A stretch of DNA of 64,000 nt from Escherichia coli (GTDB lineage Bacteria; Pseudomonadota; Gammaproteobacteria; Enterobacterales; Enterobacteriaceae). The DNA lies in assembly GCF_030013205.1 (NCBI RefSeq), contig NZ_CP122648.1; one strand, given 5' to 3'. Of the stretch, positions 41,901 to 53,900 are shown piece by piece (positions within the stretch are counted from its first letter, which is position 1; each line of letters opens with the position of its first letter). The position numbers are program-made.

Positions 41901-44900
41901 TGATCTACAACGCTGTGTAGCGGAGAGAGTATTAATCGGATCATAGTCACATCAAGTGACTATGATCCGGGTGACAACAGGAATAATTATTGCTGCTTAA
42001 CGAACAAACTGGCGAAGCTGAACAGGCTGGCGGCGCTAAATATCAGTTCAATACCCACCAGTGTGGAAACCAAAGTTACAGACACCATCGGCGTTGCACC
42101 AAGGAATATCCATGCAATGACGATATCCAGCACACCAATAACGAGCTGTAGCCAGCTGCCTTTCATTGAACGCTGACGATACCAACTCATCAGGCGAATA
42201 ACCCCTGCAACACAGAACAAACCGGCAATAAATGCCGCAATGGCAAAAATGCCCAGCTCCGGTGCGCGGATGAAGAAATAGCCGATCAATAAATAGGCGA
42301 CTGCGACGAGGAAACCGGATAATACCGGCCAGAAATTATGACTGCGGTTGCTGAATAATCCAACAATAAGCGCAACGCCCGAGCAGATTAATAATGCACC
42401 CACTACCGTGCTTAAAATATCGCCAGAGACGAACGGGAAACTGATACACAGCAACCCGACGATAAACAGCAACACGGCAATAAACTGGATTGCTCTGCGA
42501 TGCTTTTTCAGCATCTCCAGATCAAACTTCAAAATTGTTGCCTTATCTATATATAACATAGAACCACCCTATAAAATTAAGAAGAAAATCCCCTGCTATC
42601 AATCTATGCCAAAAACGCGTCTAAGAATGCAGTCGATTTAATAAAAATTTCCTAATTACAGTATCTGATGCATCTGTAACTCATTGTATTGAAATAAAAA
42701 TATCTGATTTTGATATTTTCCATCAACATGACATATACAGAAAACCAGGTTATAACCTCAGTGTCGAAATTGATTCGTGACGGCTCTTTCACTTTATAGT
42801 TGAGGATATTACGATGAAAAAAGTATTAGGCGTTATTCTTGGTGGTCTGCTTCTTCTGCCAGTTGTGAGCAATGCAGCGGATGCGCAAAAAGCAGCTGAT
42901 AACAAAAAACCGGTCAACTCCTGGACCTGTGAAGATTTCCTGGCTGTGGACGAATCCTTCCAGCCAACTGCAGTTGGTTTTGCTGAAGCGCTGAACAACA
43001 AAGATAAACCAGAAGATGCGGTTTTAGATGTTCAGGGTATTGCAACCGTAACCCCAGCTATCGTTCAGGCTTGTACTCAGGATAAACAAGCCAACTTTAA
43101 AGATAAAGTTAAAGGCGAGTGGGACAAAATTAAGAAAGATATGTAATTCCGGGAATGCGTTACATCGTACTTCCTTGCATATTGAACAGGCCGGAATATC
43201 TTCTTTAAAAGCAGCTATTCCTCCTGTTCATATATAATCTCTATATTGAATGGGTTACAAAATGAATATTTCATCTCTCCGTAAAGCGTTTATTTTTATG
43301 GGCGCTGTAGCGGCTTTGTCACTGGTGAACGCACAATCTGCGCTGGCAGCCAATGAATCCGCTAAAGATATGACCTGCCAGGAATTTATTGATCTGAATC
43401 CAAAAGCAATGACACCGGTTGCATGGTGGATGCTGCATGAAGAGACAGTATATAAAGGTGGCGATACCGTTACTTTAAATGAAACCGATCTCACTCAAAT
43501 TCCTAAAGTGATCGAATACTGCAAGAAAAACCCGCAGAAAAATTTGTATACCTTCAAAAATCAAGCATCTAATGACTTGCCGAATTAATGAGGTACAAGT
43601 AAAAAGGAGTAGCAAGTTGAGCCATCTTGCTGCTCCTTTTTGCTTTTTTATATGACAGCAGAATTTATTATACGTCTTATACTCGCAGCAATTGCCTGTG
43701 GCGCTATTGGCATGGAAAGGCAAATGCGCGGCAAAGGAGCAGGGTTACGCACACATGTATTAATTGGCATGGGAAGCGCCCTGTTTATGATTGTTTCGAA
43801 ATATGGTTTTGCTGACGTGCTGTCTTTAAATCACGTCGGACTGGACCCCAGCCGTATTGCTGCTCAGGTGGTGACGGGCGTCGGGTTTATCGGCGCAGGT
43901 AACATTCTCGTTCGTAACCAAAATATTGTAGGTCTGACGACGGCAGCGGATATCTGGGTGACCGCCGCCATTGGTATGGTTATTGGTAGCGGTATGTACG
44001 AACTGGGCATTTATGGTTCAGTGATGACCTTGCTGGTGCTGGAAGTCTTCCATCAATTAACCTTCCGCCTGATGAACAAAAATTACCATTTACAGCTGAC
44101 ATTAGTGAACGGTAATACGGTATCAATGCTCGACTGGTTTAAGCAGCAAAAAATAAAAACGGATTTAGTTTCGTTGCAGGAAAGTGAAGATCATGAAGTG
44201 GTCGCCATTGATATCCAGCTTCATGCCACAACGTCGATAGAAGATCTGTTGCGATTATTAAAAGAGATGGCAGGGGTGAAAGGCGTTTCAATTAGCTAAT
44301 CTGTATAGTTATTTATTCACAGGAGTACCAGAGCGGTACTCCTGTTGGTTTTAATGATCGAGGACGATCAGTGGTGAATGGTTGGCAGGATCTTTAAGTA
44401 CGGTAATATCCGCGCCGTAGAGCATTGTCAGCGCCTGCTGTGTCAATACGTCCTGCGGTTTACCATTTGCGATAACCTTTCCTTTTTGCATTAATACAAT
44501 ACGGTCTGCATAACGCGCGGCAAGATTTAGATCGTGCAATACGCAGCAAACATTGAACTGCCGTTCGTGAACTAACTGGCGTAATAAACGGAACAAGTGC
44601 TGCTGATGGTGAATATCCAGCGCCGAAGTTGGTTCATCAAGAAATAACCATTTCGGTGAGGGAGTAGGTTCCCAGAGTTGCACCAGCAGGCGCGCTAATT
44701 GTACGCGCTGTTGTTCACCACCGGATAATTGCCGATAGTCGCGGTTTGCTAACGCCTGACAGTCACATAACGCCATTATTTGTGCTGTTTCATTATCCTG
44801 ATTACCAGTACGATGCGGATGCCGACCCATCTGGATAACTTCTTGTACGCTGAATGGAAACGCCATGTGGCTATTTTGACGCATCACGGCCCGGTGTTTC

Positions 44901-50900: not shown

Positions 50901-53900
50901 GTCCATTAATAACATGCTGGCGAAAGGGACCTGGCAAATTGATTCAGCCCAGTCTCTGAGCGGTTTAGTGCGTTACTACAACAACGACGCGCGTGAACCA
51001 AAAAATCCGCAGACCGTTGAAGCTTCTGATAGCAGCAACCCGATGGTTGATCGTTCTACAATTCAACGCGATGCGCAGCTTTCTTATAAACTCGCCCCGC
51101 AGGGCAACGACTGGTTAAATGCAGATGCAAAAATTTACTGGTCGGAAGTCCGTATTAATGCGCAAAACACGGGGAGTTCCGGCGAGTATCGTGAACAGAT
51201 AACAAAAGGAGCAAGGCTGGAGAACCGTTCCACTCTATTTGCCGACAGTTTCGCTTCTCACTTACTGACATATGGCGGTGAGTATTATCGTCAGGAACAA
51301 CATCCGGGCGGCGCGACGACGGGCTTCCCGCAAGCAAAAATCGATTTTAGCTCTGGCTGGCTACAGGATGAGATCACCTTACGCGATCTGCCGATTACCC
51401 TGCTTGGCGGAACCCGCTATGACAGTTATCGCGGTAGCAGCGACGGCTACAAAGATGTTGATGCTGACAAATGGTCATCTCGTGCGGGGATGACTATCAA
51501 CCCGACCAACTGGCTGATGTTATTTGGCTCATATGCCCAGGCATTCCGCGCCCCGACGATGGGCGAAATGTATAACGATTCTAAGCACTTCTCGATTGGT
51601 CGCTTCTATACCAACTATTGGGTGCCAAACCCGAACTTACGTCCGGAAACTAACGAAACTCAGGAGTACGGTTTTGGGCTGCGTTTTGATGACCTGATGT
51701 TGTCCAATGATGCCCTGGAATTTAAAGCCAGCTACTTTGATACCAAAGCGAAGGATTACATCTCCACGACCGTCGATTTCGCGGCGGCGACGACTATGTC
51801 GTATAACGTCCCGAACGCCAAAATCTGGGGCTGGGATGTGATGACGAAATATACCACTGATCTGTTTAGCCTTGATGTGGCCTATAACCGAACCCGCGGC
51901 AAAGACACCGATACCGGCGAATATATCTCCAGTATTAACCCGGATACCGTTACCAGTACCCTGAATATTCCGATCGCTCATAGTGGCTTCTCTGTTGGTT
52001 GGGTCGGTACGTTTGCCGATCGCTCAACACATATCAGCAGCAGCTACAGCAAACAACCTGGCTATGGCGTGAATGATTTCTACGTCAGTTATCAAGGACA
52101 ACAGGCGCTCAAAGGCATGACCACTACTTTGGTGTTGGGTAACGCTTTCGACAAAGAGTACTGGTCGCCACAAGGCATCCCACAGGATGGTCGTAATGGA
52201 AAAATTTTCGTGAGTTATCAATGGTAATCATCTGCCCCGATATTTCGGGGCATTTATCTGGAAGGAAGAGAGACAATGAACCACTACACACGCTGGCTTG
52301 AGTTAAAAGAACAAAATCCCGGAAAGTACGCGCGTGACATCGCAGGTTTAATGAATATTAGCGAAGCAGAACTGGCATTTGCGCGCGTCACGCACGATGC
52401 GTGGCGGATGTGCGGCGATATCCGTGACATTCTGGCGGCGCTCGAAAGTGTTGGCGAGACCAAATGTATTTGTCGTAATGAATATGCAGTCCATGAGCAA
52501 GTTGGTGCGTTCACAAACCAGCATTTGAACGGACATGCCGGATTGATCCTCAATCCGCGCGCGCTGGATTTGCGTCTGTTTCTCAATCAATGGGCCAGTG
52601 TTTTTCACATTAAAGAAAATACGACTCGTGGCGAACGCCAGAGTATTCAGTTCTTTGATCATCAGGGCGATGCATTACTAAAAGTTTATGCCACCGACAA
52701 TACCGATATGGCGGCATGGAGTGAGCTTCTGGCACGGTTTATCACCGATGAGAATACGTCGCTTGAGTTAAAAGCCGTTGATGCGCCAGTTGTTCAAACG
52801 CGAGCCGATGCCAGTGTGGTCGAGCAAGAGTGGCGGGCGATGACCGACGTTCATCAGTTTTTTACGTTGCTCAAGCGCCACAACCTGACGCGCCAACAGG
52901 CGTTCAATCTGGTGGCAGATGATTTGGCCTGCAAAGTATCCAACAGTGCGTTGGCGCAAATTCTTGAATCTGCACAGCAGGATGGCAATGAAATCATGGT
53001 GTTTGTTGGCAACCGTGGCTGCGTACAGATTTTCACCGGTGTGGTAGAAAAAGTGGTGCCAATGAAAGGTTGGCTGAATATTTTTAACCCGACGTTTACT
53101 CTTCATCTATTAGAAGAGAGCATTGCTGAAACCTGGGTAACCCGTAAACCTGCTAGTGACGGTTATGTGACCAGTCTGGAATTGTTTGCCCATGATGGTA
53201 CGCAGATAGCGCAACTTTATGGTCAACGTACAGAAGGCGAACAGGAGCAAGCGCAATGGCGTAAGCAAATTGCTTCGCTGATACCGGAAGGCGTTACTGC
53301 ATAACGTATAATTAACGGGAGGTCTGGCTATTTATTGCTGGGCCTCTTTATATTAATCAATCGATCACACCAGATAATCAATATGCTGATGGCGTACCAA
53401 CTCATTGATCCGCTTAAGATTGAGGATCATCATGATATTGTGTTTATGGCAGTAGAACGTTTTTAGCGATATTTTCAGTTTCTCCAGAATATCTTCCGTT
53501 GTCATTTGATTCGCAATGCAGCTCAGAACCTGATGCTGCTTGCGCGAAAGGGACACATCCGCTTCAGGCACAGAGCAGTAACTGCCATTGATGAGTGCGA
53601 CAAAGTCGATGATGGTGATAGTTCGCGGAACAAAGGTCACCGGTACTTTCCCCAGGCAGCGTTTAATATTAAAGGGAGAGAAAATAATCACATGGACAGG
53701 TTTTAATCGTTCAATTTGAGTGAGCAAATTAGAATGAAATACATTATTCATTAATGTATCAATAATGACGAAGGCATGCTGATGCAACATTACGTCGATC
53801 TCTTCTTCGTTCTGTATATGAACGACATTACCTTTACTCAGAATGTTTTTCATCGCAGTGAAGAACATCGTATCCCTGGTAATTATAAGAAACATAACCG

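Follow-up and report, generated by a model that had tools for sequence, protein, structure and literature searches.

Some Escherichia coli chromosomes carry a block of haem genes inside the acid-fitness island (AFI) and others carry only a short spacer at the same position, which raises the question of what this block is, what controls it and how the two states came about. We followed this question in a stretch of 64,000 nucleotides of E. coli DNA (contig NZ_CP122648.1 of RefSeq assembly GCF_030013205.1), referred to here as the window. Comparison of the junctions delimited positions 44305–53364 (9,060 bp) as the block separating yhiD from dctR, two genes that adjoin each other in K-12-type genomes, which agrees with the original prediction that the block is missing from K-12. 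A megablast search of 5,426 complete E. coli genomes found the chromosome of E. coli ETEC1748 to be 100% identical to the window from 43000 to 55000, and gene coordinates were taken from a list of open reading frames (ORFs) together with the RefSeq annotation of this identical sequence. That annotation gives the order slp, dctR, chuS, chuA, chuT, hutW (chuW), hutX (chuX), chuY, chuU, chuV and yhiD, followed beyond yhiD by hdeB, hdeA, hdeD, gadE, mdtEF, gadW, gadX and gadA, and thereby bears out the AFI order that had been read from the sequence, slp-dctR-chu-yhiD-hdeBA-hdeD-gadE-mdtEF-gadW-gadX-gadA. yhiD (43652–44299, plus strand) and dctR (53365–53895, minus strand) are convergent with the chu block between them. 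The locus is almost certainly the canonical chu (Shigella shu) haem acquisition and utilisation locus within the AFI, which is the best explanation of the observations as a whole, and nothing contradicts this identification.

The chu locus and the way it is regulated have been described before (Wyckoff 1998; Kouse 2013; Wei 2017; Sy & Tree 2022), so that the observation itself re-identifies a well-known virulence-associated iron-uptake locus and holds no new biology. Growth on haem as the sole iron source depends on it, according to Wyckoff 1998 and Torres 1997 as cited in PMC5458455. What may go further is that the chuT promoter appears to carry an undescribed site for FNR that would work together with the small RNA FnrS as an oxygen switch, and that the occupied and empty alleles of the site may both be older than E. 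coli; we offer this pair of proposals tentatively and put it somewhat short of an even chance.

The block consists of eight annotated coding sequences, with chuV, chuU, chuY, chuX, chuW and chuT on the minus strand and chuA and chuS on the plus strand. Nine genes had been proposed, under a title that itself named eight, but no ninth ORF is supported; the other ORFs of at least 80 amino acids overlap annotated genes or lie on the opposite strand of the chuA leader, a stretch in which the compared species show 1-nt and larger, frame-breaking indels. The gene identities proposed earlier held. NCBIfam equivalog or subfamily cut-offs were exceeded by ChuV, ChuX, ChuW and ChuA, and the names of ChuU, ChuT, ChuY and ChuS are those in the RefSeq annotation of the identical sequence. 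chuV (hmuV; 44351–45121) encodes the ATPase of the haem ABC transporter (NF010068 equivalog, 395 bits with a cut-off of 261), and chuU (45118–46110, GTG start) encodes its permease, a protein of the FecCD/BtuC type with 88% amino-acid identity to the corresponding gene of a Citrobacter operon. The periplasmic haem-binding protein is encoded by chuT (48648–49562), and for ChuU and ChuT the only matches, all below cut-off, are to related transporter families (BtuC/FecCD and Peripla_BP_2 types, respectively). For chuY (46161–46784) the annotation is anaerobilin reductase, a function attributed to LaMattina 2017 in PMC9002310, and homologues of ChuY in other loci give NmrA and NAD_binding_10 matches in Pfam. 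chuX (hutX; 46784–47278) encodes a cytosolic haem carrier (TIGR04108 HutX equivalog, 210 bits with a cut-off of 110) and chuW (hutW; 47291–48628) a radical-SAM methyltransferase of oxygen-independent haem degradation (TIGR04107, 570 bits with a cut-off of 400). The CATHCTFC motif named for ChuW was found in its translation, where IPFCATHCTFCGF supplies the CX3CX2C signature as C67-ATH-C71-TF-C74. On the other strand, chuA (50245–52227) encodes the TonB-dependent outer-membrane receptor for haem and haemoglobin (TIGR01785, 588 bits with a cut-off of 317) and chuS (52276–53304) a cytoplasmic haem-degrading and haem-binding protein with the duplicated fold of the HemS/ChuX type. Neither ChuY nor ChuS has a model above cut-off, and ChuS matches the HutX family weakly, below cut-off.

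ChuA imports haem across the outer membrane with energy supplied through TonB, ChuT takes it across the periplasm and ChuUV transports it into the cytoplasm. There ChuS processes haem in air, while without oxygen ChuW opens the haem ring to give anaerobilin, ChuY reduces the anaerobilin, and ChuX holds the haem or the product.

Fur boxes had been predicted at 49586–49604 and 49937–49955, and a consensus scan returned exactly these positions as the only such sites in 64 kb, where 0.01 were expected. The first matches 16 of 19 consensus positions, covers +1 to +19 of chuT and is invariant in six genomes from three Escherichia species; the second, on the minus strand, matches 17 of 19, covers −17 to +2 of chuA and is invariant in seven genomes. 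The chuA box overlaps the −10 hexamer as well as the transcription start that follows from the 291-nt leader described below, with promoter-like hexamers TTGATC and AATAAT separated by 17 bp at 49917–49945 (plus strand) that fit a start at about 49954. Since the two promoters stand back to back and each is overlapped by a Fur box, both are predicted to be repressed when iron is plentiful, in line with the Fur control proposed earlier and with the binding of Fur to shuT in electrophoretic mobility shift assays (PMC5458455). No further Fur box with five mismatches or fewer was found elsewhere in the island, for chuU or chuS for example, and none precedes chuS.

The three transcription units named in the original prediction agree with the chuAS, chuTWXY and chuUV units reported in PMC9002310; four promoters were predicted by Wyckoff et al., as cited in PMC5458455. 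Against a separate chuUV unit, the 50-bp gap between chuY and chuU has no promoter, Fur box or terminator that we could detect. A GC-rich hairpin (UGCGGCGC...GCGCCGCA) can be read there at 46131–46155 on the minus strand, but it is not followed by a T-run and is therefore not an intrinsic terminator. With no Fur box before chuU, the third unit is not visibly controlled by Fur on its own, and the sequence gives no clear sign of chuUV as a unit of its own. Between chuA and chuS lies another GC-rich hairpin (52233–52252, plus strand; 8 bp, followed by TTTATCT; −16.4 kcal/mol, z −2.4), which is possibly a partial terminator or an attenuator of read-through within chuAS, a unit reported to be bicistronic.

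Upstream of the chuT Fur box lies a perfect FNR consensus, TTGATTTTTATCAA, at 49670–49683. It is 277 bp upstream of the chuA start and centred at −72.5 from the chuT start, a start that comes from Shigella dysenteriae data, and is a candidate class I activator site. Two perfect FNR boxes occur in the window, where 0.12 are expected, and a perfect box arises in shuffles of the chuT-chuA intergenic region with P = 0.00075. The FNR box, both Fur boxes and the hairpin of the chuA leader are invariant and constantly spaced in six genomes (the window, a phylogroup B2 strain, an O157-like strain, L087, E. ruysiae and L007, a divergent 'E. coli' species representative), which cover three Escherichia species whose intergenic regions share only about 80% identity overall. 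Beyond Escherichia, homologues of ChuW with 61–87% identity sit in co-linear receptor-T-W-X-Y-U-V operons of other Enterobacterales. In five of the seven such operons, those of Citrobacter, Klebsiella, the Enterobacteriaceae locus L091, Limnobaculum and Paramixta (the last with a perfect box), an FNR-type box with at most one mismatch stands 76–80 bp upstream of the best Fur box, compared with 79 bp in E. coli; a box of this kind arises somewhere in a shuffled intergenic region with a probability of 0.016–0.057 per region.

Several points weigh against an oxygen role for this box and speak for a rival reading, in which TTGATTTTTATCAA arose by chance in AT-rich promoter DNA or belongs to another regulator. 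The intergenic region is AT-rich, the centre at −72.5 is 1 bp off the classical −71.5 (class I sites lie near −61.5, −71.5 and −82.5), the Pectobacterium operon has no box at two mismatches or fewer, and Leminorella has only boxes with two mismatches. Neither an FNR experiment on chuT nor an FNR link to chuT or chuTWXY was found in the searchable literature. In avian pathogenic E. coli (APEC) O1, an FNR-dependent chuA-lacZ activity and a gel shift by FNR on a chuA promoter fragment were reported in 2017 (PMC5481319), and the site predicted for chuA in that study is a different, weaker one (TTGTAATGTTTCAA) that is absent from the window at two mismatches or fewer. Against a chance match stand the shuffling probability, the invariance of the box across three Escherichia species in a region only about 80% identical overall, and the matching spacing between FNR-type and Fur boxes in five other genera; the APEC results, too, concern the promoter region that chuA shares with chuT. 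The other perfect box in the 64 kb (TTGATTCCTATCAA, 30246–30259) lies about 114 bp upstream of the start, at about 30367, of the cytochrome c peroxidase gene ccp (yhjA). Because we take ccp to be FNR-activated, we used this box as an informal positive control, and it too speaks against chance. We therefore regard a chance or unrelated site as doubtful, though a possibility to be taken seriously, and FNR activation of chuTWXY as plausible on the pattern of conservation; no description of the box was found in the searchable literature, and it is possibly new.

Under the reading that FNR acts here, the conserved box would add activation of chuTWXY(UV) when oxygen is absent. FnrS, an FNR-dependent small RNA, represses chuS (PMC9002310). 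FNR in anoxic cells might in this way raise the radical-SAM route of chuTWXY(UV) while the oxygen-requiring ChuS route is lowered with the help of FnrS. If this is true, the FNR site would explain the choice between aerobic (ChuS) and anaerobic (ChuW/ChuY) haem degradation in the gut.

Temperature is the other signal proposed for chuA, through a leader of about 290 nt with an RNA thermometer of the FourU type as in shuA. The length matches the 291-nt leader obtained by differential RNA-seq (dRNA-seq) in strain Sakai (PMC9002310), which corresponds to 49954–50244 of the window (plus strand) and is also described in the literature as a target of Rho and of small RNAs. The Rfam model RF02597 (shuA_thermo) matches 50216–50247 on the plus strand at 60.1 bits (gathering score 58, E = 1.2e-7) over all 32 of its 32 positions. 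The element contains a hairpin at 50223–50240 (AUUUUCC-UCAU-GGAGAAU) in which UUUU pairs with the Shine-Dalgarno GGAG, with a folding energy of −6.1 kcal/mol and a z of −2.2, and which is also kept in the fold of the whole leader. Set beside the Rfam family, the match is full-length, has the UUUU-GGAG pairing and ends at the start codon, with no difference. The FourU thermometers of shuA and of UTI89 chuA were found to be functional using reporter fusions and point mutations, with translation switching on between 25 °C and 37 °C and responding to stabilising or destabilising mutations (PMC3660397, Kouse et al.), and the hairpin in the window would likewise mask the chuA Shine-Dalgarno sequence below 37 °C. 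Its sequence is identical in the B2, O157-like and other-species loci compared, so that no covariation can be demonstrated, and the spacing from Fur box to FourU element to ATG is equal in the window and in the O157-like locus (L086). Other Rfam matches in the region (miRNA, snoRNA and hammerhead) lie far below their gathering scores and are attributed to chance.

The 3′ part of the chuA leader, about 80 nt at 50165–50247, is invariant across Escherichia species, and the remainder is about 80% identical. This invariant block reaches well upstream of the FourU hairpin and spans +271 (about 50224), the position of Rho-dependent termination reported in Sakai.

The chuT leader, which the original prediction did not mention, has both roles in the published work, where it serves as Fur operator and as a second RNA thermometer. 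For shuT, Wei et al. (PMC5458455) describe a 42-nt untranslated region, a Fur site just past the transcription start, and destabilising mutations at U+15 and U+16. In the window the corresponding 42 nt are 49563–49604 (minus strand), with the start inferred at 49604; U is present at both +15 and +16, and the predicted fold pairs UUCUC with the Shine-Dalgarno AAGAG. Counting against a thermometer here, the fold of this leader is no more stable than those of shuffled sequences (z −0.12).

How the block came to lie between yhiD and dctR was examined at its junctions. In the K-12-type genome L002 the gap between these genes is 41 bp; the two alleles are homologous as far as TCTGT, 5 bp past the stop codon of yhiD, and again from the stop codon of dctR onwards. 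In the interval K-12 carries 36 bp (GTGGCAGCGTAGCCAGACTCACCGTAAGCCTGAAAT) and the window carries the 9,060 bp of 44305–53364. As the empty allele has its own 36 bp where the island sits, the difference is a replacement and not a clean insertion; the clean indel expected from the original prediction is thus borne out in the sharpness of its homology breaks and not in its cleanness. No target-site duplication or terminal repeat beyond chance was found at the junctions, where two 8-mers are shared and 63% of shuffles share one. A repeat noticed by eye, TATTTATT, was set aside as it is missing at the right junction in E. ruysiae. No tRNA was found, and the ORF list and annotation contain no insertion sequence (IS), transposase or integrase ORF. 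Both boundaries carry stable hairpins, as had been proposed: at the left, a terminator-like hairpin at 44319–44345 between the convergent yhiD and chuV, with a T-run on the plus strand (−19.1 kcal/mol on the plus and −19.6 kcal/mol on the minus strand, z about −6), and at the right, the chuS terminator at 53317–53348, a hairpin followed by UUUAUAUU (plus strand; −18.4 kcal/mol, z −3.6; weak on the minus strand). The suggested contrast in composition is also present, the island having 50.3% GC, which equals the window average, and the AFI flanks 40.2% and 37.2%; with an island at the average and flanks that are AT-rich, it is the AFI that looks foreign, and not the island.

Among the 5,426 complete E. 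coli genomes, 2,234, or about 40%, carry the whole island and 3,179 carry the K-12-type empty junction, nearly all at 100% identity. The site is cleanly biallelic, the two states together accounting for 5,413 of about 5,420 genomes that gave any match. Every copy of the island is chromosomal, with one per genome; both matches recorded as plasmids are 4.9-Mb records mislabelled as such, and no genuine plasmid-borne copy was found. The Clermont phylogroup PCR uses chuA among its markers.

A scan for YhiD in other Escherichia, using one genome per species, showed both states outside E. coli. E. ruysiae and L007 have chu at the same site with genes 89–94% identical, and the site is empty in E. whittamii and Escherichia sp. 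E1V33, whose flanks are diverged by 13–14%. The spacers of these two align with the 36-bp spacer of K-12, and 0 of 5,000 shuffles reach the observed score. The K-12 spacer does not resemble the island ends to any significant degree. The idea that it is a remnant of them found no support, the local p of about 0.01–0.1 being inconsistent between K-12 and E. whittamii and the end-free global alignment being no better than shuffles. In AFI-like loci of Citrobacter, yhiD faces a dctR-like gene of the LuxR family in convergent orientation, without chu in between.

The Citrobacter AFI-like backbone carries a urease cargo at a different junction and no chu: in C. meridianamericanus and C. werkmanii (L012 1–11400 and L013) the order is hdeD, hdeA, hdeB, an ammonium transporter gene, ureABC-EFGD, a urea transporter gene, yhiD and the dctR-like gene.

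We favour an old insertion that replaced the spacer, because the spacer is unlike the island ends and is orthologous in E. whittamii and E1V33, and because of the Citrobacter adjacency and the contrast in GC. The island would have entered an ancestral yhiD-dctR spacer by illegitimate recombination before E. coli and E. ruysiae split, and the occupied and empty alleles would since have been swapped by homologous recombination through the AFI flanks. With an empty spacer orthologous in E. whittamii and an occupied site common to E. ruysiae, both alleles would be old, and their exchange by homologous recombination is the simplest reading. What tells against this account is that its direction is inferred and not proven, that the basal E. 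coli phylogroups carry chu, and that the O157-like chu+ strain matches K-12 at 99.1% and 99.8% in its two flanks as far as the junction, a pattern that parsimony would read as loss in the A/B1/C lineage. The rival account is that chu arrived with the AFI, that nothing was inserted, and that the K-12 state goes back to a deletion that came later, in the shared ancestor of phylogroups A, B1 and C; the near-identity of the flanks speaks for it. Bush et al. (PMC5799925) located the eight haem genes within the AFI both in O157:H7 and in E. albertii, and suggested co-arrival, or insertion followed by clean deletion; occupation of the same site in E. ruysiae and L007 agrees with this, and the one junction shared by all 3,179 empty E. 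coli sites fits a single event. A simple deletion, however, cannot create a 36-bp spacer that is unlike the island ends and that is recognisably orthologous in chu-negative species whose flanks have diverged so far, and both the yhiD/dctR-like adjacency in Citrobacter and a composition sharply unlike that of the AFI stand against co-arrival. We consider a deletion from an originally occupied island to be unlikely, while still giving it some weight.

As to the nearly identical flanks, the YhiD of the O157-like strain (L086 653–1300) and that of K-12 (L002 3653–4300) have the same accession, WP_001296814.1, so occupied and empty sites can have flanks without a single difference as far as the junction. 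A transfer of the empty allele to K-12 from some distant Escherichia was rejected, as the K-12 flanks have 0–2 mismatches per 100 bp against the O157-like strain and 8–23 against E. whittamii. The locus is variable among strains, linked to virulence and has been called pathogenicity-island-encoded (PMC9002310), which would suit a classical mobile island, inserted site-specifically by an integrase or transposase and still able to move. Of the four hallmarks of such an island (an integrase or transposase, a tRNA, flanking repeats and deviant composition) none is present: there is no IS ORF either, the direct and inverted repeats do not exceed chance, and the GC content is that of the window. All 2,236 carriers have a single copy at one chromosomal site, and this reading is effectively refuted. 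If the replacement and exchange that we favour are true, the site would hold a long-lived presence/absence polymorphism and not a recent gain or a clean loss. The strain distribution, noted as 'puzzling' since 1998, would then reflect neither a clean insertion nor a clean deletion, as two old alleles appear to have been shuffled by recombination.

The island itself seems to have two parts. ChuT to ChuV are 73–88% identical to the products of the Citrobacter and Klebsiella R-T-W-X-Y-U-V operons, in which ChuS is absent and the receptor is only about 30% identical to ChuA. Since chuTWXYUV matches these co-linear operons and chuAS does not, the island reads as a mosaic of two modules, chuTWXYUV and chuAS. 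A natural variant with chuAS only, bounded by enterobacterial repetitive intergenic consensus (ERIC) elements, exists in Escherichia sp. MOD1-EC7003 (L009 5883–6530). In this strain a partial ERIC element adjoining yhiD stands in for chuTWXYUV and the chuT promoter, and a complete ERIC element (L009 6281–6403) is inserted in the chuA leader, upstream of an intact FourU hairpin.

Farther along the window, the interval from slp to arsC (54966–58068) contains a frameshifted hypothetical gene (54966–56082), a permease gene (56663–57664) and a gene for a regulator of the ArsR/SmtB family (57772–58068). The same interval in K-12 has fragments of that hypothetical gene interrupted by IS5 and is without the permease and regulator pair.

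Compared with known systems, the operons of Citrobacter, Klebsiella, Limnobaculum and Paramixta share ChuT, W, X, Y, U and V at 57–88% protein identity in the same order from T to V, and the same promoter layout with an FNR-like box 76–80 bp upstream of a Fur box. These operons and that of L091 (loci L088, L089, L091, L092 and L094) begin with a TonB receptor of 710–718 amino acids, about 30% identical to ChuA, and have no ChuS, whereas E. coli lacks this receptor and has chuA-chuS joined on in the divergent direction. The operons of the four genera also lie at other chromosomal sites, outside any acid-fitness island. Haem loci of the Yersinia hmuRSTUV or HemS type, which are Fur-regulated, combine a receptor, a protein of the HemS/ChuS type and a T-U-V transporter; they are operons running in a single direction and are not known to contain the W-X-Y genes of anaerobic degradation. 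The closest systems are the shu locus of S. dysenteriae and the chu loci of E. coli O157:H7 and uropathogenic E. coli (Wyckoff et al. 1998; Torres & Payne 1997), which agree with it in all eight genes and in their order, orientation and position between yhiD and dctR (also called yhiF) over about 9.1 kb. DNA identity to chu+ E. coli is 96.9–98.6% among the matches listed, and the Fur boxes, the FourU element and the chuT leader are the same as those described for S. dysenteriae shu and other chu loci (PMC5458455; PMC9002310). We see no difference of substance from the known shu and chu loci, and the window carries ordinary allelic variation in the copy of a strain labelled as porcine enterotoxigenic E. 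coli.

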